Below are positions 1 through 15,992 of a stretch of 16,195 nt of DNA, one piece after another. The stretch comes from a virus. Taxonomy: Duplodnaviria; Heunggongvirae; Uroviricota; Caudoviricetes. Both the position numbers and the translations under genes were made by a program. Below the pieces are notes generated by a model, which was not told the origin of the DNA, made no database searches, and saw only the letters and a program-made list of their open reading frames with translations. Within the stretch, counting starts at the first letter, position 1. Each line of letters starts with the position of its first letter. The stretch lies in IMG/VR virus record IMGVR_UViG_2537561991_000020; one strand, 5' to 3'.

Positions 1-276
1 GTGGCTTCTGTTTCTATCAGCTGTCCCTCCTGTTCAGCTACTGACGGGGTGGTGCGTAACGGCAAAAGCACCGCCGGACATCAGCGCTATCTCTGCTCTC
101 ACTGCCGTAAAACATGGCAACTGCAGTTCACTTACACCGCTTCTCAACCCGGTACGCACCAGAAAATCATTGATATGGCCATGAATGGCGTTGGATGCCG
201 GGCAACTGCCCGCATTATGGGCGTTGGCCTCAACACGATTTTACGTCACTTAAAAAACTCAGGCCGCAGTCGGTAA
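1..276 (+). CDS. insA: IS1 InsA (transposition regulator; N-terminal part of the InsAB' transposase)
   Basis: 91-aa ORF starting with GTG at 1; sequence [39 protein letters not shown]... with a Cys-rich zinc finger, matching IS1 InsA as I recall it. Confidence 0.9.
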
Positions 277-698
277 CCTCGCGCATACAGCCGGGCAGTG
301 ACGTCATCGTCTGCGCGGAAATGGACGAACAGTGGGGCTATGTCGGGGCTAAATCGCGCCAGCGCTGGCTGTTTTACGCGTATGACAGTCTCCGGAAGAC
401 GGTTGTTGCGCACGTATTCGGTGAACGCACTATGGCGACGCTGGGGCGTCTTATGAGCCTGCTGTCACCCTTTGACGTGGTGATATGGATGACGGATGGC
501 TGGCCGCTGTATGAATCCCGCCTGAAGGGAAAGCTGCACGTAATCAGCAAGCGATATACGCAGCGAATTGAGCGGCATAACCTGAATCTGAGGCAGCACC
601 TGGCACGGCTGGGACGGAAGTCGCTGTCGTTCTCAAAATCGGTGGAGCTGCATGACAAAGTCATCGGGCATTATCTGAACATAAAACACTATCAATAA
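195..698 (+). CDS. insB: IS1 InsB (transposase catalytic part, expressed via -1 frameshift from insA)
   Basis: 167-aa ORF overlapping the insA 3' end in the -1 frame; A6C frameshift motif at 253-259; sequence matches IS1 InsB as I recall it. Confidence 0.9.
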
Positions 699-846
699 GT
701 TGGAGTCATTACCAGCAGCATAATGATAATGCGTAAGGGCACCCAGAAGTTTTACCCATCTTTACGCATTTGATCTGGAACAGGTTTAACAGCGGATTAT
801 CAGGTCATTAAGCAAATATAACGCCCTGAGAATTTCGACAGGCAAA

Positions 847-876
847 AGAAAAAGGGGTTAGCATTTAGCTAACCCC
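847..876 (-). terminator. Rho-independent terminator downstream of the tRNA-Ser segment (minus-strand sense)
   Basis: Perfect 9-bp stem ggggttagc / gctaacccc (854-862 and 868-876) with a 5-nt loop, followed on the minus strand by a U-run (plus-strand A-run 847-853). Confidence 0.5.
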
Positions 877-886
877 TTATCTTATC

Positions 887-946
887 TGGCGGAAGCGCAG
901 AGATTCGAACTCTGGAACCCTTTCGGGTCGCCGGTTTTCAAGACCG
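887..946 (-). other. Partial tRNA-Ser (anticodon UGA, serT-like) 3' segment from anticodon stem to CCA; probable prophage att junction
   Basis: The reverse complement reads cggtcttgaaaaccggcgacccgaaagggttccagagttcgaatctctgcgcttccgcca, i.e. anticodon stem-loop (UGA), long variable arm, T-arm, acceptor 3' strand and CCA. No matching 5' half lies upstream on that strand. It sits next to the integrase gene. Confidence 0.6.
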
Positions 947-1087
947 AAGAAAAACAAATAAAAATCAGTGTAATACGTGAAATTGCTGAAAAGTTAATCA
1001 AATTTAACACCAAGAAAAATCAAGGTATTAGGAAGTTGCTCATAGCTAGTATACCAAGTCTTTTTGCCAGAAATTTTTCTGGATTGT

Positions 1088-2107
1088 CTACTTGCTAACC
1101 ACGAGCGGCAAATCCAGTGTTGGTGTGATTTTTGTTTTACGATCGTAAATCAACACCTGATTTTCTGTTTTATGCCCGCTGAAAATTTGTTTGTCGCGAC
1201 TGCTGCCTTCGTAATCTGAGATCCCCTTGGCTTTTATGTCGTGAAAATTACACCCGAACGGAACGCCAACTTTTTGCTCGGCTGCGCGTTTAGCCTGATT
1301 CCACCAGTTATTCAGCGTTTTAGCTATGACTTTCCCGCCTTTGGTTGTATTGATCACATATTCGCATGTACAGGAAGATACATTTCGGGCTAACTGGATC
1401 GCTGTACGTAATCGCGGTGACCATTCCTTGATTTGTTTGGTGCCGGTTTTGTTTTGCTCAATGTAGATCCCTTTATCCATAATATCCTGCCATTTCAACT
1501 CAAGCACATCACCGAGTCTTGCCGCACAGAGATAGGAAATCTCCATTGCAATGCGTAACTGTGGAATTGCTTCCGCATATATCGCCGCATACTGTTCATC
1601 GGTGATGTAAACAGTGCGGGCTTTAAGAGAGAATTTTCTGACTCCTTTGCATGGGTTATTCTTCACATACCCACGCTCATATCCCCACCCGTATACTCGA
1701 CTCAGGCTTGCCAGTTCATGATTTGCCTGGGTCTTGCTCTCAAGCCCTCGTTTATCCATGAAAATTCTTACCTGCTCAGTTTTGACATTATCAGCAAGCA
1801 CTTTTCCGAATACCATCAGCAACGCCTTCTGATGTTGTCGATAATCTTTTTGGGTTCGGGGGGCCAGTTCTGTAAATGCAGGGGAGTCCATAAACATGTG
1901 CCATAATTTAGCTACGGTCATTATGTTGTGGAGTTTTGCTTTTTCCAGTTCATAATTTTGCCAGACTTTAGCTACGCTGGTTTTCCGCACTCTTCCTAGC
2001 CCTATACTTCTTGTACTTCCTTCGGGTTTCCACACGTAACTGTAACCATTCGATCTAACCCGCGGTGGCAGTACATTATCTTTTTTATTTTTTCTTGGTC
2101 TTCCCAT
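1088..2107 (-). CDS. int: Lambda-family tyrosine integrase
   Basis: 339-aa ORF. The N-terminus MGRPRKNKKDNVLPPRVRSNGYSYVWKPEG resembles the lambda Int arm-binding N-terminus; the C-terminus FHDIKAKG...SGHKTENQVLIYDRK fits the His/Tyr catalytic region of tyrosine recombinases. It is adjacent to the tRNA fragment. Confidence 0.85.
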   Translation of the reverse strand: MGRPRKNKKDNVLPPRVRSNGYSYVWKPEGSTRSIGLGRVRKTSVAKVWQNYELEKAKLHNIMTVAKLWHMFMDSPAFTELAPRTQKDYRQHQKALLMVFGKVLADNVKTEQVRIFMDKRGLESKTQANHELASLSRVYGWGYERGYVKNNPCKGVRKFSLKARTVYITDEQYAAIYAEAIPQLRIAMEISYLCAARLGDVLELKWQDIMDKGIYIEQNKTGTKQIKEWSPRLRTAIQLARNVSSCTCEYVINTTKGGKVIAKTLNNWWNQAKRAAEQKVGVPFGCNFHDIKAKGISDYEGSSRDKQIFSGHKTENQVLIYDRKTKITPTLDLPLVVSK

Positions 2108-2327
2108 TGTTCAGCGCCTCAAAATCGGGTTCAGCAGAAACCAGTTCAGATGTTTTTGGCATCGTTGTCAGACCGTGTGGAATATCCCTGCGGAGAACTA
2201 TGGGTTCGTTTTTAGGGCCGATTACAAATGGGATGCCGTGCAGTCTTAACTGGTGTTGCTGTTTTGTGTATCGCTCGTATTTCGTGATCTCTTTAATCTC
2301 TGCTGGAGATAGAGTTAATTCGTACAT
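2085..2327 (-). CDS. xis: Putative excisionase (80 aa), start chosen at the internal ATG at 2327
   Basis: Small ORF (MYELTLSPAEIKEITKYERY...) immediately upstream of int and overlapping its start by 23 nt, as xis/int do in lambda. The first residues resemble lambda Xis (MYLTLQEW...). Assignment is by position and size only. Confidence 0.45.
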   Translation of the reverse strand: MYELTLSPAEIKEITKYERYTKQQHQLRLHGIPFVIGPKNEPIVLRRDIPHGLTTMPKTSELVSAEPDFEALNNGKTKKK

Positions 2328-2394
2328 GTGGTCACGTGCCTTTACAGCATGACCGCCGCCACTATAGCTGGTGGGCGGCGATATGGGTTGAACA

Positions 2395-4866
2395 TTAAAA
2401 ATCAGCCTGACTCGGGAGCAGTTTTTGCCAGATGGCTGAAACGTATTTCGCCTGGTAACGTGCATCGTTCAGAGCGTTATGGCGTTCACCTTCGAATGGA
2501 ATAGTCGTTCTTGCGTCGAAATCCATCACCAGTCCCAGAGCAACCATCGTTCTTACATCGCGATCATTGGTGTAACGCCACGGGCAGGGGATCCCCTGCC
2601 GTTCATATGAACGGCGTAAAATCACGTTGTCGAAAGTTGCACCGTTACCCCAGACCTGAACAAAAAATTCACCGGAGTTTTCGTCGATAAATTCCCGCAA
2701 TTGTAACAGTGCATCATCTAACGGGATTTCATCGGTCATAATGGCAGATTGCGCTTCGCGTGATTGCTTAAGCCACCATTTAATGGTGTCCCGATCAATG
2801 ACTCCGCCAGCAGTTTCCAGATCAATAGTCTTACTAAATTCCGGTCCCATATCTCCGGTTTGCGGATCGAAAAATATTGCACCTATTGAGATAATCGGGG
2901 CATCAGGATTTTTTCCCATGGTTTCAAGGTCGATCATTAGATGGTCACACGTCCTGCTGGTGGATGTGATAACGTGATGACCGTTCACCGTAATTAAGGG
3001 ATCTGCCGTCTCGCCAGTTTCACTATCGCTGGCGTGATCCTGAGCGCTACCAGCATTCTCCTTGTGTGGATGTTCAGCGCCTTCCATTTCCTCCGGATCA
3101 TTTTCCTGAACTTCAACCTGATTCTCTTCATCGAATGTTTCCTGGTATGTTGCGTCACCCATCACCGCGCCACAATCATGGCAGTTGCCACCACCGCTTT
3201 GACCGCAGGCGGTGCAGACTTTTTCCGGTTCCTGTTGCGCTACTGGCTCAGGTTGTTTCGTTTCTGGCTCGTTTTGTTGCGTATTTGGGCTGTTTTGTTC
3301 CGCTTTCTGGTCGTTCTGTTCCGATTCTTGCTGGTTCTGGTTTACAGAATCGCGGGTTTCCATCCCCTTTACCCATTTCGGATCATTCGGGTCGCTAATC
3401 CCTGCAACAAATTCTCCGCGAGAGGCAGCAAGCAACTTATCGGCGTCAGGCTGGCTGATATTGGCTGCCTGCATAATTTTGTTTACTTCGTCAGCGGTAA
3501 CTTTTACCGGCTCTGGTTGTGCGGTCGTGTCAGATGCACCAGTATTTTGTTGTGAACCTGAGTATGTACTGTTTTTGCGGGCGAAATATTCTTCTTTCGT
3601 GATTTCAGTAGCCCCGGCAGCCAGTGCCTTATCCAGACCAGAAAGTTTGTTTGCGCGACCGTATTTTTCGCCATCCTTGTCGGTGAAGAGGAAGTAGAAC
3701 GGCCCCTCACGCTCTACAGATGGTTCGACTTCCACTTTGCATTCGGTTTTTTCGTTGTCCGGAATTGCCGTTTCCACTGCATCAGTTTCTGGTACTGACG
3801 ACGAGAGAGTATCAGTTGCGCTCTGATTTGTTCCTTCATCTTCAAACACGCCCTTTGTAGTCAGGTATTCAGTAATGTATTTGTTCAGTGCCACAGGGTC
3901 TTTGTGAATGTCGATCGGACGTTCACGGACAAGGCCAAAAATAGTCTGGCGGTCGTAGCGAAGGGCATCAGGCTGTTTGCGCATTGATGTCGAGATACGC
4001 TTCCAGTCTTCGCGGTCGTTGTCGATAACTTCATTTTTTGCCCAGCGATGGATGCTGCCGTCAATGTTTCCGGCATCCACATCACCAGGCCAGAGAGCGT
4101 AGGCCAGTTCGTCATCCAGTGTTTTCCATGTCTGCTTGTATTCGCGATGAATGGCAGCAATGACCAGGCTGATTTTTCCTGTTGAATTTTCAGTGTGCTG
4201 TTGATTGACTCTGGCGCGGGCGAGATCAACAACAGACGTGTATTTTCCGGTTTCCTTGCGTTCACCTTCGCGACGTTTTTTCCAGATGCGCATCTCTGCC
4301 TGAATTTCGGGCCATTTGGCACCAGGCTTACATTTATGCTTAACCCACCCGATGGCATGCAGCTTAAGCTCCGGATACATGGCGTTAACTTCTGGCATTT
4401 TCATCAACGCTTCAACGATATGTCCGTCGAATGTTGCCATGTCTTCCTGCAACAATTCCTGTGCGCTAATAACCATATCAACGGTGATGTTTTCACATGT
4501 GTCGAACTTAACCATGACAGCGTTCTGTACTTCAGGGGCCAGCTTGTCAAAAGTGACGTTCATCGGATCGGATTCAGTCTCAACCGGGACAAAGGAAGCA
4601 GACTCCTCATCCCAGCGGTTTTCCTGCATATATTCAGCATCCCAGGAATCGAGGGCAGGGCGGGGTATGCCGGGTTTATCCTCACAGACAATAAATTTAT
4701 AAGCGCAGTCCTGAGCTGCAGGGAATTGCTCCAGAAATTGCCAATGAAATTTTGCGCGTGCGCGACGCTCATCACCAGCTTCAATGGCAGTGGCCACCGC
4801 AACAGCGCTATCTTCTTTTATGGCCTGTTCATCAGGAATAGCAGCGCAAATAAAGACTTTACTCAT
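2395..4866 (-). CDS. Phage exonuclease-family protein (exodeoxyribonuclease VIII-like) with a C-terminal DnaQ-like DEDDh 3'-5' exonuclease domain
   Basis: 823-aa ORF with a GAGGT ribosome-binding site. The C-terminal region has the motifs MIDLETMG (Exo I, D/E) and [13 protein letters not shown] (Exo III, H...D). A central Q/E/N-rich low-complexity segment and a CxxC-x7-CxxC zinc ribbon ([16 protein letters not shown]) are present. It occupies the exo position between xis and the dicB operon. Confidence 0.75.
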
Positions 4867-4958
4867 TTTGTTTTACCTCATTACAGATTTAAGGGTGAAC
4901 AAATCCCTGCCATTGCTGGCATATAAGAATGAAACCGGATGTTTATTACGGAACTGTT

Positions 4959-5150
4959 TTAAAGACCTGCCGGGATTTCGTTATTATCCTGGTGAATAAC
5001 TTTATCGACCGGGTAACAGTTACCGGGAATTTTCTGTTCGGTTGCTGCAGTCACACACTCCTGCATTGTCCTGTGAACACTGACTGCAATATCAACTGGC
5101 TCTCCGGAAACAAGAAAAACTGTCAGAACAAGTGCAAATGCTGTATTCAT
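4959..5150 (-). CDS. ydfD: YdfD-like small lysis protein (63 aa)
   Basis: The internal-start product MNTAFALVLTVFLVSGEPVDIAVSVHRTMQECVTAATEQKIPGNCYPVDKVIHQDNNEIPAGL closely matches K-12 Qin YdfD as I recall it. Its ATG overlaps the dicB stop (ATGA). Confidence 0.7.
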   Translation of the reverse strand: MNTAFALVLTVFLVSGEPVDIAVSVHRTMQECVTAATEQKIPGNCYPVDKVIHQDNNEIPAGL

Positions 5151-5335
5151 TGCCAGCATCCTTTTTGTATCGGACGTAAACGGGCCAGCATTGAAAGAAT
5201 GCATATTTTATTTAATAGCTCCCGTTCGTGTTTTCTCTTGTTAATGGCATCTTCAGTAAATACAGGGTTACTGATAGTGACACCAATTTCAAAACAACCT
5301 TCAGACGTATTAACGTTTGGTAATAACGTTTCCAT
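5147..5335 (-). CDS. dicB: Cell division inhibitor DicB (62 aa)
   Basis: METLLPNVNTSEGCFEIGVTISNPVFTEDAINKRKHERELLNKICILSMLARLRPIQKGCWQ is near-identical to K-12 DicB as I recall it. ATG at 5335 (plus-strand cat 5333-5335) with a GAGGA ribosome-binding site; the longer track ORF (to 5440) is rejected. Confidence 0.85.
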   Translation of the reverse strand: METLLPNVNTSEGCFEIGVTISNPVFTEDAINKRKHERELLNKICILSMLARLRPIQKGCWQ

Positions 5336-5504
5336 TATCGCGTCCTCAACAATGAATTTTGTGATGTGGTGCCTGGTGCCTCCAGGTGACGTTAACCAGT
5401 TAACAATTAACGCCGGATACAGAGAATCCACCCATAACACTGTTTTTGGTTTTAACTGTTCCGCGTGCGCTCAGCCGCATTCACCGCATCACAAAATTCA
5501 CTTT

Positions 5505-5562
5505 AAAAACGGCGGCAGAGCAGTCACGGAGTAAAACTGATACCGCCAAACGTCACCAGAAA
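5505..5562 (-). ncRNA. dicF: DicF small regulatory RNA (ftsZ-targeting antisense sRNA)
   Basis: The minus strand reads tttctggtgacgtttggcggtatcagttttactccgtgactgctctgccgcc followed by a U-run, essentially the DicF sequence as I recall it. It lies between ydfC and dicB as in the K-12 dicB operon. Confidence 0.75.
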
Positions 5563-5902
5563 ATTGATAACAGAGGGCGTTGCAGCGGGGTTGTCGCTTA
5601 AGCGTATGGTCAACCTGACAACCCGGTGTCCTCAACGGGGAAGGAATAACCCCGCCATACTTACCGCCGCGCCATTTCGCGGAGTGCCACAACCGGAAGC
5701 GCACGGTCGACGAAAATTTAACGACAGGCTATCTATGAACCAGCTACCTCGCCGTGCGCTTTCGCGTTATGGTCTGACTTTTCATGGAAATATCCTTTCA
5801 GTAAACTGTCAGTGCCGGATGCTCACCCATGTCCGGCGCACGCACTCCACCTCACCCGTGGAGAACTCCTTAATTACCAACCTTAGCTTCGTTGGTTAGC
5901 TA

Positions 5903-6121
5903 TTAACGCGGGTATGTAATCATTCTGGCAATGCTTAATGCCGCTGCTTTTTCCAGCCTGGTGATATCCTGCTCCAGAGCGGACAGATTTTCAGCCTGCT
6001 TAGCCCTGGCTTCATTGGCCCATTTCAGATCCTGCGCTGCATTAATTTTCTGGCGCATCCACTCATAAAGTTCATCATCGGTATAGTCTGGCGAGATGAT
6101 GACGGGTTCTCGTTTCTGCAT
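5903..6121 (-). CDS. ydfC: YdfC-like prophage protein (72 aa)
   Basis: 72-aa ORF (MQKREPVIISPDYTDDELYEWMRQKINAAQDLKWANEARAKQ...) in the ydfA-ydfB-ydfC-dicF-dicB order. Size and synteny match K-12 ydfC; I cannot recall its sequence with confidence. Confidence 0.6.
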   Translation of the reverse strand: MQKREPVIISPDYTDDELYEWMRQKINAAQDLKWANEARAKQAENLSALEQDITRLEKAAALSIARMITYPR

Positions 6122-6150
6122 ACTGATTCCTCGCGGTGCTGCTTCGCTTA

Positions 6151-6279
6151 TCAGCCGTTAGATTTTGCCGAGCTGGAAAGCGCCTGTTTAAACTCACTGA
6201 AGCTGAGAGCTTCTTCGCCTTCGGCAAGGCCTTCGAAGTATTCTTCGTAAGCCTTTTCCATGATTGTGTCGAAATCCAT
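6151..6279 (-). CDS. ydfB: YdfB-like small protein (42 aa); not in the ORF track because it is under 60 aa
   Basis: Hand-translated minus-strand ORF: ATG at 6279 (plus-strand cat 6277-6279), product MDFDTIMEKAYEEYFEGLAEGEEALSFSEFKQALSSSQKSNG, stop at 6151-6153. A GGTGA ribosome-binding site precedes it. It sits between ydfA and ydfC. Confidence 0.6.
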   Translation of the reverse strand: MDFDTIMEKAYEEYFEGLAEGEEALSFSEFKQALSSSAKSNG

Positions 6280-6280
6280 A

Positions 6281-6436
6281 TCACTCACCTGAGTTTCTTT
6301 CCAGCCAGCGACGGGCACCATTTTCGGTTTTAAACGTTTTGCTTCTGGTATACGTCATCGCGGTAAACGTGCCGTCCTGGTTGGGAAACACGCCGCATAC
6401 CAGAGATTCGTTGTTGCCAAGATCGATAGTATTCAT
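6281..6436 (-). CDS. ydfA: YdfA-like small protein (51 aa)
   Basis: Internal-start product MNTIDLGNNESLVCGVFPNQDGTFTAMTYTRSKTFKTENGARRWLERNSGE. First gene of the dicB operon downstream of the operator/promoter region, consistent with K-12 ydfA. Confidence 0.65.
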   Translation of the reverse strand: MNTIDLGNNESLVCGVFPNQDGTFTAMTYTRSKTFKTENGARRWLERNSGE

Positions 6437-6511
6437 GCTGACCTCATTTCCCCTTAACGCCGGGGTAGCGGAACTGTTTGCTGAGAACACCGTGCGGTGT
6501 CTTGGTGGAGA

Positions 6512-6542
6512 TTAATTTAGAATAACCTAACAAATGTAGCAA
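6512..6542 (-). promoter_or_regulatory. Candidate sigma70 promoter of the ydfABC-dicF-dicB-ydfD operon (dicBp-like)
   Basis: On the minus strand: -35 TTGCTA (plus 6537-6542), 17-nt spacer, -10 TAAATT (plus 6512-6517). The spacer overlaps an operator-like half palindrome. Confidence 0.4.
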
Positions 6543-6567
6543 GTATTTTTGTTAGATTGGTCTAACA
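6515..6567. promoter_or_regulatory. Operator pair between dicA and ydfA: two 18-bp TGTTAG-N6-CTAACA-type palindromes
   Basis: Perfect inverted repeat tgttagattggtctaaca at 6550-6567. Imperfect copy tttagaataacctaaca at 6516-6532 overlaps the candidate promoter. The same motif recurs in the dicA-dicC intergenic region. Confidence 0.5.
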
Positions 6568-6603
6568 AAAAGAGTGAGGGAATCTAAGTATCTGAAAGGA
6601 GTG

Positions 6604-7011
6604 TTATTTTATTGATTTGTTTTTACGTGCTTTAAGCATTTCTTCGAAGAGTTTATTGAAATTCTCTACTCTTGCGCGCATTTCAGACAGTAAGGCTTCC
6701 TGCTCGGAGGAGGGAAGAGCATCGAATAATTCGATCAATTCTTTGTGGCTGGGAGTTAACTCGGTTTCCACATGAAGTTCTTGTGCTGGCACTGGTGCCT
6801 TGTCTTCGTCACCAAACATTAGCCATGTAGGCGAGCACTTCAGCGCATCAGCTAAAGCAAATAACCGCTTCCCGACCGGTTGGGTTTCGTCTCTTTCCCA
6901 TTGTGAAATTGTGACGTGAGCTACCCCAGCGAGGCGTGCAGCTTCTCGTTGTGTTAGGCGTAATTCTTTTCGTCGTGCCAGAACTCGCTGGCCTAGGGTT
7001 CTTGTATCCAT
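6604..7011 (-). CDS. dicA: DicA-like HTH repressor (cI-like, XRE family)
   Basis: 135-aa ORF. HTH region LTQREAARLAGVAHVTISQWERDETQP and C-terminus ...EMRARVENFNKLFEEMLKARKNK closely resemble K-12 DicA as I recall it. Divergent from dicC. Confidence 0.85.
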   Translation of the reverse strand: MDTRTLGQRVLARRKELRLTQREAARLAGVAHVTISQWERDETQPVGKRLFALADALKCSPTWLMFGDEDKAPVPAQELHVETELTPSHKELIELFDALPSSEQEALLSEMRARVENFNKLFEEMLKARKNKSIK

Positions 7012-7078
7012 AGTTAGGTAATTCTAATTTTTCTTGACTTAGGTATCCCGTGCACATTACTGTTAGGAATATCTAACA
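7012..7078. promoter_or_regulatory. dicA-dicC divergent control region with two TGTTAG-N6-CTAACA-type operators and a candidate dicC -35
   Basis: Perfect palindrome tgttaggaatatctaaca at 7061-7078; imperfect agttaggtaattctaatt at 7012-7029; TTGACT at 7035-7040 as a candidate -35 for dicC with no convincing -10. Confidence 0.5.
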
Positions 7079-7091
7079 AGAGGGGGCTTTG

Positions 7092-7319
7092 ATGCTTAAA
7101 GTTGACGCAATTACTTTTTTTGGCAGCAAAACAAAACTTGCCAATGCCGCAGGAGTGAAACTGGCAAGTGTTGCTGCATGGGGGGAACTGGTTCCTGAAG
7201 GTCGCGCGATGCGCCTGCAAGAGGCATCCGGCGGGGAACTTCAGTACGACCCCAAAGTTTATGACGAATATCGTAAGGCAAAGCGGGCGGGGCGGTTGAA
7301 CAATGAAAATCACCCCTGA
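7092..7319 (+). CDS. dicC: DicC-like Cro-type regulator (75 aa)
   Basis: MLKVDAITFFGSKTKLANAAGVKLASVAAWGELVPEGRAMRLQEASGGELQYDPKVYDEYRKAKRAGRLNNENHP matches K-12 DicC as I recall it. ATG at 7092 is preferred over the TTG at 7089 because the AGGGGG ribosome-binding site (7081-7086) is better spaced. Confidence 0.8.
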   Translation: MLKVDAITFFGSKTKLANAAGVKLASVAAWGELVPEGRAMRLQEASGGELQYDPKVYDEYRKAKRAGRLNNENHP

Positions 7320-7824
7320 ACAGGTTTGTGAGGCTCTGGATGCCTGGGTATGCCGACCAGGAATGACACAGGAGCAGGCGACGATATTAATCACGGAAGC
7401 ATTCTGGGCTCTGAAAGAACGCCCGAACATCGATGTTCAACGCGTCACGTTTAATGATGGCGAGGTTGATCAACGGGCGTTGGGCGTTAACCGGGTGAAG
7501 ATATTCGAACGCTGGAAAGCTATCGACACCAGGGATAAGCGGGAAAAATTCACGGCGCTGATTCCGGCAATTATGGAGGCTATCCGGATCAGCGATTTCA
7601 GGTTGTATTGTGAAATTACTGACGGAAAAAGCATTACGTACATGATCGCCGGGTTAAACAAAGAATATGGTGATGTGGTGGAGTCCGGGCTGCTTTTTGC
7701 GGATCCATCTGTTGTGGAACGTGAGACTGACGAGCTTATAGAAAAAGCTATTGCTTTCAAGCATGCGTATCGTCAGCAATACCAACAAAAAGCTGGATGG
7801 AATTATGAGCCTTCTTTTTGCTGA
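7303..7824 (+). CDS. YdaT-like protein in the cII position
   Basis: 173-aa ORF directly downstream of the cro-like gene with a 17-nt overlap. Weak motif resemblance to Rac YdaT (MKI...; REKFTALIPAIMEAI versus REKIQKLIPAILAIL). Confidence 0.5.
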   Translation: MKITPEQVCEALDAWVCRPGMTQEQATILITEAFWALKERPNIDVQRVTFNDGEVDQRALGVNRVKIFERWKAIDTRDKREKFTALIPAIMEAIRISDFRLYCEITDGKSITYMIAGLNKEYGDVVESGLLFADPSVVERETDELIEKAIAFKHAYRQQYQQKAGWNYEPSFC

Positions 7825-8770
7825 ACGCCCACTGGTTATAAACACACAGCTTGCGATGAAGATTGGCTTAAATGAAGCCATTGTGTTGCAGCAGTTGCAT
7901 TACTGGTTGAGAGATACCAGTTCCGGTATGGAATGTGACGGGGTTCGCTGGATTTATAACACAACAGAACAATGGCTGGAACAGTTCCCGTTCTGGTCAG
8001 AGTCAACGTTAAAACGCGCATTTGCAAGTCTGAAAACGCTGGGGCTTTTGCGTTGCGAAAAGCTCAACAAATCAAAGCGTGATATGACTAATTTTTACAC
8101 GATTAATTACGAGAGTGAGCTTTTAGATGGTGGCAAAGTGAGCGAATCCATCAGGTCAAAATGCGCCGCTCCATCGGGTCAAAATGACACGATGGAAGAG
8201 GTCAAAATGGCACGCTCCATTGGTTCAAAACGACCCAATGTCATCGGGTCAAAATGGCCTGATGATCTTACAGAGAATACAACAGAGATTACTACAGAGA
8301 ATAAAAACACTTCTCGTCCGGAAGCTTCGCAACCGGACCCGCAGACGGCTGAACAGGATTTTTTAACCCGACACCCTGACGCGGTTGTGTTCAGTGCGAA
8401 AAAACGCCAGTGGGGAAGTCAGGAAGATTTGGCGTGCGCACAGTGGATCTGGGGACGAATCGTGAGTCTTTACGAGCAGGCTGCCAGCGATGATGGCGAG
8501 ATCACGCGACCGAAAGAACCAAACTGGACCGCATGGGCCAATGACGTGCGCACAATGCGGATGCTGGATGGCAGAAGCCACAGACAAATTTGCGAAATGT
8601 TTGGTCGGGTACAGCGAGATCCATTCTGGGTAAAAAACATCATGAGCCCGTCAAAGCTTCGCGAAAAATGGGACGACCTGGTCATCCGCCTGGGGCGTTC
8701 ACCTGTACAGTGTTGTGTGAATCATATTTCTGAACCGGATACCGAAATTCCGCCTGGTTTCAGGGGATAA
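7805..8770 (+). CDS. Putative phage replication initiator (O-like), with internal iterons
   Basis: Long ORF after the cro/cII-like genes. The N-terminal region (ERPLVINTQLAMKIGLNEAIVLQQLHYWL) looks like a helix-turn-helix replisome-organizer domain. The gene contains direct repeats (iterons) as lambda O contains ori. Start is uncertain: ATG 7805 preferred, 7751 and 7763 possible. Confidence 0.6.
   Translation: MSLLFAERPLVINTQLAMKIGLNEAIVLQQLHYWLRDTSSGMECDGVRWIYNTTEQWLEQFPFWSESTLKRAFASLKTLGLLRCEKLNKSKRDMTNFYTINYESELLDGGKVSESIRSKCAAPSGQNDTMEEVKMARSIGSKRPNVIGSKWPDDLTENTTEITTENKNTSRPEASQPDPQTAEQDFLTRHPDAVVFSAKKRQWGSQEDLACAQWIWGRIVSLYEQAASDDGEITRPKEPNWTAWANDVRTMRMLDGRSHRQICEMFGRVQRDPFWVKNIMSPSKLREKWDDLVIRLGRSPVQCCVNHISEPDTEIPPGFRG
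8154..8256. repeat. Iteron array (candidate origin of replication): five ggtcaaaatg-type repeats at about 23-bp spacing
   Basis: ggtcaaaatg at 8154-8163, 8177-8186, 8200-8209 and 8247-8256, plus variant ggttcaaaacg at 8222-8232. Spacings are 23, 23, 22 and 25 bp. An AT-rich tract with three acagaga repeats follows (about 8257-8310). Confidence 0.55.
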
Positions 8771-8810
8771 GTGGTGATTTTAGGGCATAAAGTAATGTTC
8801 AGGAGGACTT

Positions 8811-9218
8811 ATGGCAAAAGTATTTACACAGGAAGAGCGGGAAAAAATTAAAGGACAGGTGGTGGAACTCGTGCGCCAGAGCGGTCGTGAGACGTTACGG
8901 CAACTGGAAGCTAAAACAGGTGCGACAAGATATCTGATGAGCGTTCTTGCCAGAGAGCTGGTTGCCAGTGGTGATGTATATCACTCTGGCTATGGGGTGT
9001 TCCCGTCAGAACGGGCTCGTAAGGACTGGCAAAACGCCCGCAAAAAACTCTCGAGGGCAAAGGTGAAGAAACCTGTTGTGGTTGATCCGGGCCTTATCTG
9101 GACATTACCCGACGGAGAAATACGCCGCTACGACAGGCGTATGAACATAATCTGTCGCGAGTGCCGGAAGAGCGAAGTTATGCAGCGTGTATTGGCGTTC
9201 TATCAGGGATATGCCTAG
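8811..9218 (+). CDS. Hypothetical protein (135 aa), possible HTH-containing
   Basis: ORF with a good ribosome-binding site (caggagga, then ATG at 8811). No confident homology recalled. Confidence 0.55.
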   Translation: MAKVFTQEEREKIKGQVVELVRQSGRETLRQLEAKTGATRYLMSVLARELVASGDVYHSGYGVFPSERARKDWQNARKKLSRAKVKKPVVVDPGLIWTLPDGEIRRYDRRMNIICRECRKSEVMQRVLAFYQGYA

Positions 9219-9264
9219 AATTGTCACAGGTAATGAAATTAAAGAGTATTGGTTCGGATATGAA

Positions 9265-9294
9265 TTGACATTTTCGCGGCACAGAGCTAAAAAT
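9265..9294 (+). promoter_or_regulatory. Candidate sigma70 promoter in the AT-rich leader upstream of the SIR2-like gene
   Basis: TTGACA at 9265-9270, 17-nt spacer, taaaaat at 9288-9294. It would give a roughly 290-nt leader to the ATG at 9587. Confidence 0.3.
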
Positions 9295-9586
9295 AGCCTA
9301 CTTGTTGGTTTTGTGTGAAAAGCAGACATTTTGAGGCTCAGGATTTGTTATCAAATAAGACCAATACTTATCTATATTAATACACATTAAATACTGTGCA
9401 ATACATTATTGCATTTTATTAGATAAGCGATATTTAGGGAAAAGAAAAGTCATAGAAAACAGGCCGCTATTTGTTGTTGGATTTTATAGGCTATATCTAG
9501 ATTATCTTGCCACTGCGGTCTCTGTTTACCTAACAGCTTGGGCTTCTTTGCATGCAAGTTTGTAATAACAAGAGTAATCAAACGGA

Positions 9587-10618
9587 ATGTCTATTAATCC
9601 TAAACTTAAGCGTATCGCGCGACGCTATCCAGCGTTATTCCAATATGAGTCCCCCTATATGGCAAGAAAATTAATAATATTCGGCAACGGTCTCGGTATG
9701 GCTTTAGATCCTGCTCACTTCTCCTTAGACAGAGCGTTGGAAGAAATTTGGCATCGCCCCAATTTTTTAAAAGATATCCACAAGCAACTTATCGAGCGTT
9801 GTCTTCAGCGGCAAGGTCCACCAGAAGGAGAACATGAGTTGGATACCCTTCACCAGGCTGTCACATATTGTAAAGCTCTTGCTCAAATTGGAGAGGGGAA
9901 CGTGCATTGGCTTACTGAAGATGGACTAAACTTCCCCAAAATTACCGCCACTTATATTCACAAAGTTGCAACCAGGTTGCATAATTACGATAAAGGTTTG
10001 CCACAAAGATTCGAAAATGCGCTTGTGGAGTTTGTAAAGAACACACACTCACATATCGCGACATTAAACTATGACAAATTATTATACAATTCATTCATAG
10101 ATAATGATATATTCAACGGGTATGATGGGGTTTTAGTTGATGGGATGCTAAGCCACGGATTTTCCTCTGCAGCGCTCGAACGGAAATACAATCGTAGGTT
10201 TGGTTATTATTTGCACTTGCATGGTTCACCACTATTTATTAATCAGCATGAAAATGTTTTAAAACTTTCACGCTCACAACTTACTCTTGACATAGATGAA
10301 CCTAGTGAGCATATAGTGTTAACTCATATAAAAAGAAAACCGTCAGTTATAGCAGCATCTAATGTTCTTTCTACGTACTGGGATTATTTGCAGTTTGCAT
10401 TATTTGAATCAGAAGAAATAATATTGTTTGGTTACTCTGGTCTCGATATTCACCTTAACCTGCTTATTCGACCTTACCTAACCTCTAAGCCTTTAAGAGT
10501 AATTGAGTGGAGCGGTGCTGGTGAACAAAACGCTCGTGAGATATATTGGAAAAACCAGTTGAGACGGGAAGTTACTGTAATTAGGTTGGATAACATCACT
10601 GATTTTATTGATTGGTAG
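9587..10618 (+). CDS. Standalone SIR2-like (SIR2_2-type) putative NAD+-hydrolase; candidate anti-phage defence cargo gene
   Basis: 343-aa ORF in a visibly AT-rich block. Four ordered motifs parallel Thoeris ThsA-type SIR2 domains: IIFGNGLGMALD (Gly-rich loop), TLNYDKLL (conserved Asn), YYLHLHGSP (catalytic His), IILFGYSGLD. Start codon is uncertain because the ribosome-binding site at 9587 is weak. Confidence 0.6.
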   Translation: MSINPKLKRIARRYPALFQYESPYMARKLIIFGNGLGMALDPAHFSLDRALEEIWHRPNFLKDIHKQLIERCLQRQGPPEGEHELDTLHQAVTYCKALAQIGEGNVHWLTEDGLNFPKITATYIHKVATRLHNYDKGLPQRFENALVEFVKNTHSHIATLNYDKLLYNSFIDNDIFNGYDGVLVDGMLSHGFSSAALERKYNRRFGYYLHLHGSPLFINQHENVLKLSRSQLTLDIDEPSEHIVLTHIKRKPSVIAASNVLSTYWDYLQFALFESEEIILFGYSGLDIHLNLLIRPYLTSKPLRVIEWSGAGEQNAREIYWKNQLRREVTVIRLDNITDFIDW

Positions 10619-10688
10619 CGCAATGCGAAGTTAAAGAGGCAGCCTCATATTTATCAGAGCTGGTGTACGTCCAATACAGGAGGTTATC

Positions 10689-10778
10689 GTGCTGGTTCTC
10701 AAATGCGCGCTGGCTATTGCGGCTGTAGTGGCAATTTATTGTCTTGCTATTGTTCTTATGGATCGCCTTTCTGATTGA
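10689..10778 (+). CDS. Putative 29-aa hydrophobic membrane peptide
   Basis: GTG at 10689 preceded by a consensus AGGAGG (10678-10683) with 5-nt spacing. Product VLVLKCALAIAAVVAIYCLAIVLMDRLSD is one predicted transmembrane helix; stop TGA at 10776-10778. Not in the ORF track because it is under 60 aa. Confidence 0.35.
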   Translation: MLVLKCALAIAAVVAIYCLAIVLMDRLSD

Positions 10779-10989
10779 TTTTATATTGGCGAGGTGACGG
10801 GAGTTAAGTAGAATTGCTGCGGGTGCTTGAGGCTGTCTGCCTCGGGCATGCCACCGTAAGGCAGACAGAGAAAAGCCCCAGTTAACATTACGCGTCCTGC
10901 AAGACGCTTAACATTAATCTGAGGCCCAATCTATGCTTCACAAACGTAGGTTAGCCTCTTACGCGCCGAAAGGCAAGGAGAAGCAGGCT

Positions 10990-11145
10990 ATGAAGCAGCA
11001 AAAGGCGATGTTAATCGCCCTGATCGTCATCTGTTTAACCGTCATAGTGACGGCACTGGTAACGAGGAAAGACCTCTGCGAGGTACGAATCCGAACCGGC
11101 CAGACGGAGGTCGCTGTCTTCACAGCTTACGAACCTGAGGAGTAA
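10990..11145 (+). CDS. hokD: Hok-family type I toxin HokD/RelF (51 aa)
   Basis: MKQQKAMLIALIVICLTVIVTALVTRKDLCEVRIRTGQTEVAVFTAYEPEE matches K-12 HokD as I recall it. Internal ATG at 10990; stem-loops typical of hok mRNA leaders lie upstream (10833-10868, 10882-10916). Confidence 0.85.
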   Translation: MKQQKAMLIALIVICLTVIVTALVTRKDLCEVRIRTGQTEVAVFTAYEPEE

Positions 11146-11213
11146 GAGACCAGGCGGGGGAGAAATCCCTCGCCACCGCTGATGTGTCAGGCATCCTCAA
11201 CGCACCCGCACTT

Positions 11214-11245
11214 AACCCGCTTCGGCGGGTTTTTGTTTTTATTTT
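11214..11245 (+). terminator. Rho-independent terminator after hokD
   Basis: Stem cccgc (11216-11220), loop ttcg, stem gcggg (11225-11229), followed by tttttgtttttatttt. Confidence 0.6.
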
Positions 11246-11361
11246 CAACGCATTTGAAGTTCTGGACGGTGTCGGAATAGAATCAAAAATACTTAAGTAG
11301 CGCGCAGGGATAAGAGGGATGGTCCCTTAAAGGGGAGAGCTAATTATCCGGAAGGATTCTG

Positions 11362-11613
11362 ATGATGAACATCGAAGAACTGCGTAAAATTTTTTGTGAA
11401 GATGGCCTCTATGCTGTGTGCGTTGAAAATGGAAATATTGTTAGTCATTACCGCATTGTGTGTTTGCGAAAGAATGGGGCTGCGTTAATTAATTTTGTGG
11501 ATGGTCGAGTGACAGACGGATTTATCTTGCGCGAAGGTGAGTTTGTCACTTCATTACAGGCACTGAAAGAGATCGGAATAAAAGCTGGCTTTTCTGCTTT
11601 TTCAGAAGAATAA
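11362..11613 (+). CDS. Hypothetical prophage protein (83 aa; Rem-like by size and position)
   Basis: ORF with ribosome-binding site ggaagga. Follows hokD as rem does in K-12 Qin, and K-12 Rem is also 83 aa as I recall; the sequence itself was not verified. Confidence 0.5.
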   Translation: MMNIEELRKIFCEDGLYAVCVENGNIVSHYRIVCLRKNGAALINFVDGRVTDGFILREGEFVTSLQALKEIGIKAGFSAFSEE

Positions 11614-11679
11614 ACTCATCTACAATCTTGCGCGGGGCTGAACTCCCGCTGAGTAACACCGTGCCGCCGGAGGAAACCG

Positions 11680-11958
11680 ATGGCACGCAACGCAAAATAT
11701 TACAATCATGATAATTCGACCGTTCTTGCCCACACGCACGAGCGGTATTCTCACGCATTTAAGTCAGACTGGTACCAGCATCCCCCATGCACTGAAGAAC
11801 AGGCCGAATGGCTCATTCAGTGTTACCGCAGGCGCGGATGCGAGGTTAAAAAAGCCCTTAGCCTCGACTACCGTCACTGGATAATCTCCGTCGGGCTTCC
11901 TTACTCCGAACGCCCACCGCGTCTGTCCCGCACATTCCAGCAACGCATCTGGAGGTAA
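11680..11958 (+). CDS. Hypothetical protein (92 aa)
   Basis: ORF whose stop abuts the GTG start of the following gene, suggesting translational coupling. No homology recalled. Confidence 0.5.
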   Translation: MARNAKYYNHDNSTVLAHTHERYSHAFKSDWYQHPPCTEEQAEWLIQCYRRRGCEVKKALSLDYRHWIISVGLPYSERPPRLSRTFQQRIWR

Positions 11959-11959
11959 C

Positions 11960-13009
11960 GTGCGGGTATTACTTCGACCTGTTCTGGTACCGGAACTCGG
12001 GCTGGTGGTCCTTAAGCCCGGTCGCGAATCACTGCCGGTTTTTCATTGCGGCAGGGTGCTGGTGGAGCCGGAACCGAAAAGCATGCGCGGTCTGCCGTCC
12101 GGAGTCGTCCCTGCCGTTCGCCAGCCGCTGGCGGAGGATAAATCATTACTGCCATTTTTCAGCGATGAGCGTGTGATTCGTGCTGCTGGCGGCGCTGGCG
12201 CACTGTCTGACTGGCTCCTGCGTCATGTCAAATCCTGCCAGTGGCCTCATGGTGACTACCATCACAGTGAAACCGTCATACATCGTTATGGTACCGGCGC
12301 AATGGTGTTGTGCTGGCACTGCGACAACCAGCTGCGCGACCAGACCTCCGAATCACTCGGGCAACTTGCTCACCAAAACCTGTCTGCATGGATGATTGAC
12401 GTCATACGCCATGCAATGAATGGCTCGCAGGAACGGGAATTATCGCTGGCTGAATTATCCTGGTGGGCGATCCGCAATCAGGTGGCGGACGCGCTACCGG
12501 AAGCGGTATTACGTCGTTCGCTGGGGTTGCGTGCGGAAAAAATCCGCTCAATGTACCGTGAAAGCGACATCGTACCGGGAGAGCAGACCGCCACCAGCAT
12601 ACTGAAACAGCGCACAAAAAATCTTGCGCCGCTGCCTCACGCCCACCAGCAACAGAACCCGCCACAGGAAAAGACGGTGGTCAGCATTGCTGTTGATCCG
12701 GAGTCTCCGGAATCTTTAATGAAGCGACCTAAACGTCGCCGTTGGGTAAATGAGAAATATACGCGCTGGGTAAAGACACAGCCGTGTGCGTGTTGTGGTA
12801 AGCCAGCCGACGATCCCCATCACCTGATTGGTCATGGTCAGGGCGGAATAGGGACAAAAGCCCACGATATTTTCACGCTACCGTTGTGCCGGGAGCATCA
12901 CAACGAACTTCATGCTGATCCGCTGGCATTTGAAGAAAAGCATGGTTCCCAGATTGATTTAATTTTTCGTTTTCTTGATCGCGCCTTTGCAACCGGCGTG
13001 CTCGGGTAA
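11960..13009 (+). CDS. DUF968-family protein (YdfU-like) with a C-terminal Cys/His-rich putative HNH-like motif
   Basis: 349-aa ORF with GTG start and a GGAGG ribosome-binding site (11951-11955). C-terminus CACCGKPADDPHHLIGHGQGGIGTKAHDIFTLPLCREHHNELH. Position between the rem-like gene and rusA matches ydfU in K-12 Qin. Confidence 0.65.
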   Translation: MRVLLRPVLVPELGLVVLKPGRESLPVFHCGRVLVEPEPKSMRGLPSGVVPAVRQPLAEDKSLLPFFSDERVIRAAGGAGALSDWLLRHVKSCQWPHGDYHHSETVIHRYGTGAMVLCWHCDNQLRDQTSESLGQLAHQNLSAWMIDVIRHAMNGSQERELSLAELSWWAIRNQVADALPEAVLRRSLGLRAEKIRSMYRESDIVPGEQTATSILKQRTKNLAPLPHAHQQQNPPQEKTVVSIAVDPESPESLMKRPKRRRWVNEKYTRWVKTQPCACCGKPADDPHHLIGHGQGGIGTKAHDIFTLPLCREHHNELHADPLAFEEKHGSQIDLIFRFLDRAFATGVLG

Positions 13010-13021
13010 AAGAGGTTACTG

Positions 13022-13381
13022 ATGCGTATAGAGTTTGTTTTGCCTTACCCGCCGACGGTGAACACCTACTGGCGACGTCGTGGCAGCACATATTTTGTGT
13101 CAAAAGCCGGTGAGCGTTATCGCCGGGATGTGGCACTTATTGTTCGCCAGCAGCGGCTGAAATTAAACCTGTCCGGAAGGCTGGCGATAAAGATTATTGC
13201 AGAGCCACCGGATAAGCGCCGCCGCGACCTGGACAATATCCTGAAGGCACCACTGGATGCGCTTACGCATGCCGGACTACTTATAGACGACGAGCAGTTT
13301 GATGAAATCAATATTGTGCGCGGTCAGCTCGTTTCTGGTGGGCGGCTGGGCGTGAAGATTTACAAAATTGAAAGTGAGTGA
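13022..13381 (+). CDS. rusA: RusA-family Holliday junction resolvase
   Basis: 119-aa ORF. YPPTVNTYWRRRG...AEPPDKRRRDLDNILKAPLDALTHAGLLIDDEQ parallels DLP12 RusA (...[23 protein letters not shown]...). Typical ninR-region location upstream of Q. Confidence 0.8.
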   Translation: MRIEFVLPYPPTVNTYWRRRGSTYFVSKAGERYRRDVALIVRQQRLKLNLSGRLAIKIIAEPPDKRRRDLDNILKAPLDALTHAGLLIDDEQFDEINIVRGQLVSGGRLGVKIYKIESE

Positions 13382-13944
13382 GCATAAATATGATATACCC
13401 GGAAATTACAGGCAAAAGCGGTGAGCATTTACGCCTGAAAACGCTGGAAAGTGTCTGGATCCAGGGGAAACTGCGTATGTGGGGGCGTTGGTCGTATATT
13501 GGCGACGGTAAGACGGGAAATATGTTCAACCAATTACTGACCTCTAAAAAGCTGACAAAAACGGCAATTAACGAGGCGCTCCGGAGGATGAAAAAAGCGG
13601 GTCTGGACAAACCTGAACTTGAGGCTTTTTTGCGGGATATGATCAACGGCAATCAAAAAAGCTGGCTGGCACATTGTACCGATTCAGAGGCGTTAATAAT
13701 CGACAGGGTTATTGGTGAAGTACTGGCAGGTTATCCCGGGCTGCTCAATGTTCTGAGTCAGCGTTATGTGGGGCGGGGGATGACTAAGCGCAAAATGGCT
13801 GAACTGCTGAATGATGCACATCCGGAATGGAGTTTAAGAACCTGTGAAAGACGCATTGAGCATTGGCTAAAGGTGGCAGAATTTATTTTGTACAAACCAA
13901 TGGTTATGGCTTTTGGTATAGAGAAAAAAGTTATTGCTTTTTGA
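13378..13944 (+). CDS. Putative late-gene antiterminator Q (QuuD-like family)
   Basis: Positioned after rusA and directly before a strong intrinsic terminator. Scattered motif similarity to QuuD-type Q proteins as I recall them (LESVW..W, LLTSKK, RRMKKAG, HCTDSEA). Start is ambiguous between GTG 13378 and ATG 13390. Confidence 0.55.
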   Translation: MSINMIYPEITGKSGEHLRLKTLESVWIQGKLRMWGRWSYIGDGKTGNMFNQLLTSKKLTKTAINEALRRMKKAGLDKPELEAFLRDMINGNQKSWLAHCTDSEALIIDRVIGEVLAGYPGLLNVLSQRYVGRGMTKRKMAELLNDAHPEWSLRTCERRIEHWLKVAEFILYKPMVMAFGIEKKVIAF

Positions 13945-14021
13945 CGTAAAAACTGCTTTAATTCCGGTAAGCTTCGCAAAGCTGTACCGCGAGGCGAATA
14001 GCAGACATGGACATTTGAAAG

Positions 14022-14046
14022 AGCCCGCTTTTTGCGGGTTTTTTTA
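14022..14046 (+). terminator. Rho-independent terminator about 80 nt downstream of Q (tR'-like)
   Basis: Stem cccgc (14024-14028), loop ttttt, stem gcggg (14034-14038), then a 7-T run. Confidence 0.6.
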
Positions 14047-14366
14047 TGACTGAAAAACGGCACGGGGCGTTAAACGCGCTGGTGGTTGCTAATACCGGTC
14101 TTTCAACTTGCTGGCTTTTTCGACAAGAGTTATTGGTATGTCACGTTAACCGGAAAATGGAAAAAGGCATGCTAAAACAGCAGGATATGACCGAAACCGC
14201 CAGAGTGGTGTTTAATGAATTAAGCGTCACCGAACCGGCGACCGCCGGGGAAATTGCGCAGAACACTTATCTTTCACGCGAACGCTGCCAGTTAATACTG
14301 ACCCAGCTTGTTATGGCGGGTCTGGCAGATTATCAGTTCGGTTGTTACAGACGCCTTCCTCAGTGA
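14046..14366 (+). CDS. Hypothetical small protein, possibly winged-helix-like; start uncertain
   Basis: 106-aa ORF whose first ATG overlaps the terminator T-run. Internal ATGs around 14157-14172 are alternative starts. Its stop lies within a terminator hairpin. Confidence 0.35.
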   Translation: MTEKRHGALNALVVANTGLSTCWLFRQELLVCHVNRKMEKGMLKQQDMTETARVVFNELSVTEPATAGEIAQNTYLSRERCQLILTQLVMAGLADYQFGCYRRLPQ

Positions 14367-14380
14367 AGGCTTTTTTATTT
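14353..14380 (+). terminator. Rho-independent terminator
   Basis: Stem gccttc (14353-14358), loop ctcagt, stem gaaggc (14365-14370), followed by ttttttattt. Confidence 0.45.
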
Positions 14381-14516
14381 GTGGTAATGGGCGGCTGGTG
14401 GGTGTTAGCGGCACCTGCCAGCCATCTGCTCATGCGTTGGGGTCACAAGCAAACCTCAGGCCCATCTGCTTTGCGCAAAAGCGGTATGAGCCTATCAGAG
14501 AAGTGCTTATTGATCT

Positions 14517-15575: not shown

Positions 15576-15615
15576 TATTGAAGAATTAATTACGCGTCGT
15601 TATTATGCGGCTCCC

Positions 15616-15691
15616 GGCCCTTTAGCTCAGTGGTGAGAGCGAGCGACTCATAATCGCCAGGTCGCTGGTTCAAATCCAGCAAGGGCCACCA
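15616..15691 (+). tRNA. tRNA with CAU anticodon (tRNA-Ile2, ileZ-like, or tRNA-Met)
   Basis: Cloverleaf folded by hand: acceptor ggccctt/aagggcc, anticodon loop ctCATaa, T-loop ggttcaaatcc, discriminator A and encoded CCA. Confidence 0.85.
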
Positions 15692-15698
15692 TCACATA

Positions 15699-15775
15699 CC
15701 GCTATTAGCTCATCAGGAAAGAGCGCCAGCCTTCGAAGCTGGCTGCGCGGGGTTCAAGTCCCCGATGGCGGTCCA
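15699..15775 (+). tRNA. tRNA-Arg (anticodon UCG), argN-like
   Basis: Acceptor ccgctat/atggcgg (one G-U pair), anticodon stem ccagc/gctgg with loop cTTCGaa (U33, anticodon UCG), T-arm cgggg-ttcaagt-ccccg, encoded CCA. Confidence 0.75.
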
Positions 15776-15788
15776 TTATCTGCATCAT

Positions 15789-15865
15789 GCGTTGTTAGCT
15801 CAGCCGGACAGAGCAATTGCCTTCTAAGCAATCGGTCACTGGTTCGAATCCAGTACAACGCGCCA
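15789..15865 (+). tRNA. tRNA-Arg (anticodon UCU), argO-like
   Basis: Acceptor gcgttgt/acaacgc, anticodon loop cTTCTaa (anticodon UCU), T-loop ggttcgaatcc, encoded CCA. Confidence 0.85.
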
Positions 15866-15880
15866 CACTTATTTTCCCTG

Positions 15881-15904
15881 GCTCGCTTTTGCGGGCTTTT
15901 TTTT
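15881..15904 (+). terminator. Rho-independent terminator after the tRNA cluster
   Basis: Stem gctcgc/gcgggc (one G-U pair), loop tttt, followed by an 8-T run. Confidence 0.45.
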
Positions 15905-15992
15905 AAATGTCTCACAATTCAGACGGTTGACAGTTGTCTGTTTTGCGGGGAGTTTGTTAAAAGAAACTGGCATGGTGAATCCCCCTGTGCGG

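Follow-up and report, generated by a model that had tools for sequence, protein, structure and literature searches.

The stretch analyzed here, referred to below as the window, is the entire 16,195-nucleotide (nt) sequence of the IMG/VR virus record IMGVR_UViG_2537561991_000020 (Caudoviricetes), and all coordinates are positions in it. Our subject is its dicBF operon, the counterpart of the one in the Qin prophage of Escherichia coli K-12, which runs on the minus strand from 6436 down to 4959 in the order ydfA-ydfB-ydfC-DicF-dicB-ydfD. Features were called with Pfam, PHROG, Rfam, and ARAGORN and are collected in Table 1. A first-pass annotation of this DNA had placed the complete operon at 4959-6436, and all six elements were present there.

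Both defining components scored far above their thresholds. DicB matched Pfam PF05358 over profile positions 1-62 of 62 with 127.4 bits (cut-off 27), and DicF matched the full RF00039 model (positions 1-52) with 72.5 bits (gathering score 48; E value, 1.2e-14), differing from the K-12 RNA only at the last base compared. A DNA alignment with K-12 Qin showed ∼97% identity across the whole operon, including the ∼65 nt ahead of ydfA and ending with the ydfD stop codon; similarity was lost only in the operator/promoter region. A match of this extent indicates homology with the K-12 operon, not chance.

Control region and immunity genes

A palindrome search found two perfect 18-base-pair (bp) palindromes of the form TGTTAG-N6-CTAACA, one just upstream of ydfA (6550-6567) and one between the repressor and cro-like genes (7061-7078), each adjoined by a degenerate copy. 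The predicted dicBp promoter overlaps the perfect palindrome upstream of ydfA as well as its degenerate neighbor at 6515-6532, which has two mismatches. Its hexamers, TTGCTA and TAAATT, are 17 nt apart and fall in the same alignment columns as the K-12 hexamers TTGACC and TAATCT. A generic promoter and terminator scan of 4800-7400 returned sites no more numerous than in shuffled sequence and made no call at the dicBp position. Taken together, the arrangement is that expected of a DicA/DicC-type switch over a PL-like promoter.

The repressor is identical to K-12 DicA at 75 of 135 positions and the operator sequences are unlike those of K-12, which points to a different immunity type. Pfam detected only the HTH domain in the repressor and no peptidase S24 domain. 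A search for LexA boxes (CTGT-N8-ACAG with at most one mismatch) gave 9 sites against 5.1 expected; none was perfect, and neither the DNA ahead of rem nor the immunity region contained any. Since there is no LexA box at these places and the repressor lacks a cleavage domain, direct induction through the SOS response is not expected. The rem product is closely similar to that of K-12, where Rem is an antirepressor of DicA and where DicA and DicC form a bistable switch (PMC10448788).

The integration end and its state in K-12

The first-pass annotation had also reported a full-length exonuclease gene, xis, and int after the operon, and all three proved to be intact open reading frames (ORFs). 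Beyond int lies the core of the left attachment site (attL). It agrees at 63 of 65 positions with the 3' portion of serT, which stands complete at the opposite prophage end in E. coli strain 12A; the right attachment site (attR) falls outside the window. The integrase is identical at all 339 residues to ECs1055 of Sp4, a prophage of E. coli O157:H7 strain Sakai, and the xis-like protein at all 80 residues to ECs1056, which is annotated there as "phage excisionase."

The C terminus of the 823-amino-acid (aa) exonuclease carries a DEDD-type, Rv2179c-like 3'-5' exonuclease domain (PF16473; residues 642-813; E value, 1.3e-65). An assignment as RecE/exonuclease VIII found no support in Pfam, which gives only the Rv2179c-like domain. 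Because of this, and because the match to PHROG 412 ("exonuclease VIII") is weak and confined to residues 453-587, the exonuclease VIII labels carried by homologues in phage records appear doubtful. The Rv2179c-like domain is of a 3'-5' exoribonuclease type, and no RecT or Bet-type partner gene adjoins the exonuclease gene.

In K-12 strain MG1655, the pseudogene ydfE comes next after ydfD, then IS2E/insD7 and the pseudogene intQ. There, ydfE corresponds to codons 1-255 for the 823-aa exonuclease (244 identical) and is cut by IS2E/insD7, in agreement with the first-pass annotation, which described an exonuclease fragment and insD in K-12. That annotation had further proposed an alignment with Qin to look for shared deletions. 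Only two segments of the window, 4100-7582 and 10976-13009, aligned with K-12. Missing from K-12 are the attL-int-xis segment, the part of the exonuclease gene beyond ydfE, the O-like replication gene, and what follows as far as hok; its deletions are thus not shared in the early region.

Insertion sequences at both ends and sibling prophages

Both ends of the window lie within insertion sequence (IS) elements. IS1, at the left, sits in host DNA, 169 bp outside the attachment core and, by comparison with 12A, 33 bp ahead of the start codon of yccA. Destruction of attL by IS1 was considered and ruled out by the mapping of the core. IS1 could alter yccA expression. ISEc13, at the right, interrupts the prophage itself, after the tRNA genes and ahead of the late genes.

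The nearest complete genomes are those of O111:H2 strain 12A and FDAARGOS_1059, which are ∼100% identical to the window over 714-15992 (3 mismatches in 15,279 nt against 12A), followed by 602687 at 99.9%. Collinearity with 12A starts at 714, and collinearity with all three ends at 15992; both IS1 and ISEc13 are absent at these sites in the three genomes. No complete RefSeq E. coli genome contained the two IS junctions together, the best coverage being 94%, over 714-15992.

The window itself contains no lysis or structural genes, whose intactness in the remainder of the prophage the first-pass annotation had proposed to check. In 12A and 602687 the prophage is bounded by yccA-int on one side and serT-hyaA on the other, and its far end, a part outside the window, carries effector genes of the EspF-repeat and EspV types. 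The late region of 12A is disrupted: ISEc22 splits the large terminase gene, IS679 lies in the C40-peptidase tail gene, and ISCro1 and IS2 lie in the tail-fiber region. That of 602687 is nearly intact: its terminase, capsid, tail, lysis, and tail-fiber genes are uninterrupted, and the sole structural defect is an annotated frameshift in the portal gene; lom is also frameshifted, and the only IS lies in the effector cargo region. Should the portal frameshift be an assembly error, 602687 may hold a fully intact copy. With the late region of 602687 nearly uninterrupted and that of 12A carrying several IS insertions, the lineage was complete until very recently, with IS insertions that differ strain by strain.

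All early ORFs visible in the window are open, among them the immunity, O-like, Q-like, rusA, and hok/sok genes. The description of the backbone as apparently intact thus holds only for the ∼15 kilobases (kb) of early region that can be seen, which is undegraded relative to K-12 Qin; it does not extend to the late side, given ISEc13 at 15993 and the IS elements in the late genes of 12A.

Occurrence of the arrangement

Of 5426 complete E. coli genomes, 3176 contain the full-length exonuclease gene together with the complete operon (2395-6436, at least 80% coverage), as do 17 phage records, and the dic region occupies a median of 2 places per complete E. coli genome. One of the phages, Tritos (OV696610; 46 kb, deposited as complete), has the order int-xis-exonuclease (2472 nt)-ydfD-dicB-DicF-ydfC-ydfB-ydfA-CI-Cro, with DicF annotated. 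The module is also present in phages PhiR42_1 (host recorded as ECOR13), HannyBb, 204576, and mEp460_ev081. It had been reported in 2016 that dicBF is kept in many strains and in the 45- to 80-kb lambdoid prophages CP-933M, O, and P (PMC5069750), and in 2019 that DicB excludes phages that use ManYZ (bioRxiv 10.1101/708461). The arrangement is therefore an ordinary one that was already known, and K-12 is the exception; in view of this literature and of the deposited phage genomes, the idea put forward in the first-pass annotation is not new.

Other genes of the window

Rightward of the immunity genes lies a replication module with an O-like initiator and no separate P or DnaC-type loader, the same layout as in Tritos, where the O-like gene is likewise followed by a DUF977-like gene. 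The O-like protein also matches DnaD-like helicase-loader profiles, and the DUF977/Ren-like gene stands directly after it. A stand-alone SIR2-like gene follows in a stretch of low GC content (0.39-0.42) between the replication genes and hok/sok. In PADLOC its product gave only weak matches (Aga_SIR2 and the candidate system PDC-S21), and DicB and the DUF968 protein gave none. Related prophages carry SMEK-domain, ImmA/IrrE, or cytosine methyltransferase genes in the same slot, and K-12 carries relBE, so that the slot between the replication genes and hok/sok looks like a variable site for defense-type genes. The segment 10821-11145 forms a complete sok/hokD type I toxin-antitoxin locus. The three tRNA genes correspond to ileZ-argN-argO of Sakai Sp4; the first is called Met by ARAGORN and Ile in the RefSeq annotation.

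Table 1. Features of the 16,195-nt window, from left to right
Feature	Position	Strand	Details
IS1, partial, off left end	1-713	+	Matches IS1A copies at 97-99% identity; terminal inverted repeat TATCAATAAGTTGGAGTCATTACC, ending at 713
attL core	882-946	.	65-bp copy of 3' part of tRNA-Ser (serT)
Tyrosine integrase	1088-2107	-	339 aa; Pfam Phage_integrase; intact ORF
xis-like	2085-2327	-	80 aa; Pfam DUF4224; intact ORF
Full-length exonuclease	2395-4866	-	823 aa; PHROG 2082 matched over 1-823 of 823
ydfD-like (lysis protein family)	4959-5150	-	63 aa; 59/63 identical to K-12 YdfD; Pfam DUF1482, 88 bits
dicB	5147-5335	-	62 aa; 55/62 identical to K-12 DicB
DicF small RNA	5510-5561	-	Rfam RF00039; 3' stem-loop followed by T run
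ydfC	5903-6121	-	72 aa; 70/72 identical to K-12 YdfC; PHROG 1744
ydfB	6151-6279	-	42 aa; 42/42 identical to K-12 YdfB
ydfA	6281-6436	-	51 aa; 48/51 identical to K-12 YdfA; Pfam DUF1391
Predicted dicBp (PL-like) promoter	6514-6567	-	-35 TTGCTA at 6542-6537; -10 TAAATT at 6519-6514
DicA-type repressor	6604-7011	-	135 aa; Pfam HTH_3; 75/135 (56%) identical to K-12 DicA
Divergent control region	7012-7078	.	Perfect palindrome TGTTAGGAATATCTAACA at 7061-7078; degenerate one at 7012-7029
DicC/Cro-type regulator	7092-7319	+	75 aa; Pfam P22_Cro; 62/76 identical to K-12 DicC
CII-like/YdaT	7303-7824	+	PHROG 163; Pfam YdaT_toxin
O-like replication initiator	7805-8770	+	PHROG 391, E value 7.5e-95
DUF977/Ren-like	8811-9218	+	PHROG 142; Pfam DUF977
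SIR2-like gene, stand-alone	9659-10618	+	319 aa; Pfam SIR2_2, E value 8.6e-06; no PHROG match
sok RNA	10821-10995	+	Rfam sok, 116 bits
hokD	10990-11145	+	HokD 51/51 identical to K-12
rem	11362-11613	+	79/83 identical to K-12 Rem
DUF968 gene	11960-13009	+	Pfam
RusA gene	13022-13381	+	Pfam
Q-like DUF1133 gene	13390-13944	+	Pfam
DNA methyltransferase gene	14517-15575	+	Pfam; features at 11960-15865 also from annotation of identical record
Three tRNA genes	15616-15865	+	ARAGORN, Rfam; anticodons CAT, TCG, TCT
ISEc13 (IS4 family) end, off right end	15993-16195	.	100% identical to E2348/69 ISEc13 copies; IS4-type terminal repeat CTGTCTCTTGATCAGATC

DISCUSSION

These observations make it very likely that a mosaic lambdoid prophage of the O157 Sp4/CP-933M type occupies the 3' end of serT beside yccA and that the region is its early-left (PL-like) operon, with dicBF of the K-12 type. 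The anatomy was observed here, and its function we infer from K-12 work on near-identical sequences, for which dicBp repression, relief by Rem, and the maturation of DicF through RNase III and RNase E have been documented (PMC10448788). By analogy, the DicA-type repressor would bind the TGTTAG-N6-CTAACA palindromes and hold dicBp off, and a single leftward transcript would be turned on when Rem acts as antirepressor or when the DicA/DicC switch flips spontaneously to the Cro-like state. DicF, once released from this transcript by RNase III and RNase E, would base pair with ftsZ and other mRNAs and so repress them. DicB, together with MinC, would block Z-ring formation and inhibit ManYZ, so that phages injecting via ManYZ would be excluded, and YdfD may be able to lyse cells. 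The transcript probably runs on into the exonuclease gene, xis, and int. In a phage, the whole could act as a transient module for host takeover and exclusion, at the position held by kil in lambda. The present copy is probably able to excise; given the IS ahead of the late genes and the IS insertions or frameshifts in morphogenesis genes of its siblings, it is probably not autonomous.

Several points weigh against this interpretation or narrow it. Seven of the 62 DicB residues differ from K-12, mostly toward the C terminus. We infer dicBp only from its alignment with K-12, the site scoring 8 of 12 in the generic scan, where the threshold is 9. With a repressor 56% identical to DicA, regulation by Rem, urea, or heat as in K-12 would be an extrapolation. 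On the side of the late genes, an IS within an intergenic leader may spare a Q-antiterminated late transcript and so need not be lethal, and the DNA past both IS elements lies outside the window.

The same evidence bears on whether the element could be a fully functional, inducible temperate phage, in effect an "intact Qin" with DicF and DicB at work in its own lytic growth. We think this unlikely. It is true that attL, int, and xis are present, with Int and Xis being those of the excision-capable Sp4, that the immunity, O-like, Q-like, rusA, and hok/sok genes are open, that the sibling 602687 retains uninterrupted terminase, capsid, tail, and lysis genes, and that the module is also found in complete phage genomes; yet ISEc13 stands ahead of the late genes, the window contains none of these, and the siblings carry four IS elements in packaging and tail genes (12A) or a frameshifted portal gene (602687). 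Direct induction by mitomycin C in the classical manner would not be expected from a repressor without a cleavage domain and in a region without a LexA box, and even Sp4 of Sakai was found to circularize only via regional replication driven by Sp5 (PMC2669165). Nor would such a phage be an intact form of Qin, from which it differs in site, integrase, and immunity type. The earlier view of the element as an inducible relative of Qin is thus sustained as far as shared modules go and fails on these three counts. That the prophage remains self-sufficient and inducible in its source strain despite ISEc13 seems to us very unlikely. If it were, it would offer a natural system for studying DicF and DicB in a real lytic cycle, with a K-12-type module and non-SOS, Rem-type induction, although that module is already available in deposited phages, Tritos among them.

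A decaying remnant in which the dic module is kept for the benefit of the host, through phage exclusion and the regulation of metabolism and division, has been proposed for K-12 Qin (PMC5069750; bioRxiv 10.1101/708461), and for the present prophage we hold it possible but doubtful. IS elements at both ends of the window, the further IS elements in sibling late genes, and early ORFs that are all open would fit such a remnant, as would the presence of the operon in most E. coli genomes, often in multiple copies. The IS insertions look recent, however, since siblings at most 3 mismatches apart carry different IS sets, and the time elapsed would be too short to reveal selective retention; moreover, phage function suffices to account for a module that sits in complete phage genomes. 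There is next to no chance that the element is Qin itself, merely less deleted. DNA identity of 88-97% over the segment from dicC to the ydfE fragment and over hokD-rem-ydfU would speak for it, but the comparison of site (ydfJ/rspB in Qin, serT here) and integrase (intQ against the Sp4 type) rules it out, and the repressor, at 56%, and the Q genes differ as well. A mosaic prophage of the Sp4/CP-933M type with a K-12-type dicBF operon remains the reading that we favor.

The apparent contrast between an intact and a degraded dic region comes from the use of K-12 as the reference, the usual state in E. coli being dicBF beside a full-length exonuclease gene, xis, and int. For the study of DicF and DicB in a natural lytic context, the deposited phages Tritos and PhiR42_1 would be a better start than the present IS-flanked copy.

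Comparison with known elements

The position of the operon recalls that of kil in the PL operon of lambda, and dicBp has been compared with lambda PL (PMC10448788). In both, small division inhibitors are encoded leftward from a repressor-controlled early promoter, upstream of the recombination and int-xis genes. The likeness is offered as an analogy only and no sequence relationship is claimed; unlike kil, DicB acts through MinC and DicF is an RNA.

With K-12 Qin the present prophage shares the gene order and spacing of the operon, the divergent repressor/cro pair, and promoter hexamers at aligned positions. Qin differs in having the ydfE fragment, IS2E, and the intQ pseudogene and no replication genes, where the present prophage has the full-length exonuclease gene, xis, int, attL, and replication genes. 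Qin also lies between ydfJ and rspB with its own pseudogenized integrase, and its Q gene is ydfT in place of the DUF1133 gene found here. The two share modules only and are not one element. Such sharing of modules is normal for mosaic lambdoid phages.

Tritos is 93.6% identical to the window over 4042 nt of exonuclease gene and operon, with DicB identical at 55 of 62 residues, YdfD at 60 of 63, and the first 50 nt of DicF identical, and no IS elements are shown in its genome annotation. Outside the module the two diverge: its integrase (19%), xis (14%), repressor (27%), and O-like protein (20%) are different, and it carries other cargo between the replication genes and hok.

A counterpart with the same integration site is Sakai Sp4 (CP-933M in EDL933). 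Sp4, too, is inserted on the yccA side of serT, starting right after ECs1054 at the position of yccA, and besides its 100% identical Int and Xis it has an exonuclease of the same 823-aa family (86%), a DUF977 gene (88%), the order exonuclease-ydfD-dicB...ydfB-ydfA, and the ileZ-argN-argO tRNA trio. In 2009, Sp4 was shown to excise and circularize after mitomycin C treatment, its DNA being packaged with help from other prophages (PMC2669165). The effector gene tccP2 has been placed on Sp4 (PMC2884950), and we read the EspF-repeat and EspV genes of 12A and 602687 as its correspondents. The IS insertions of Sp4 (ISEc8 in nu1, and IS629) differ from those found here. Its repressor is only 22% and its O-like protein 23% identical to those of the present prophage, the latter being accompanied by a DnaC-type loader. 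Within the operon itself, ydfA and ydfB are 94-98% identical between the two, whereas DicB matches at 35 of 62 residues, YdfD at 42 of 63, and the ydfC segment is missing from Sp4, where a different ORF of 390 nt occupies the interval. Recombination breakpoints between Sp4 and the window evidently lie inside the dic operon.

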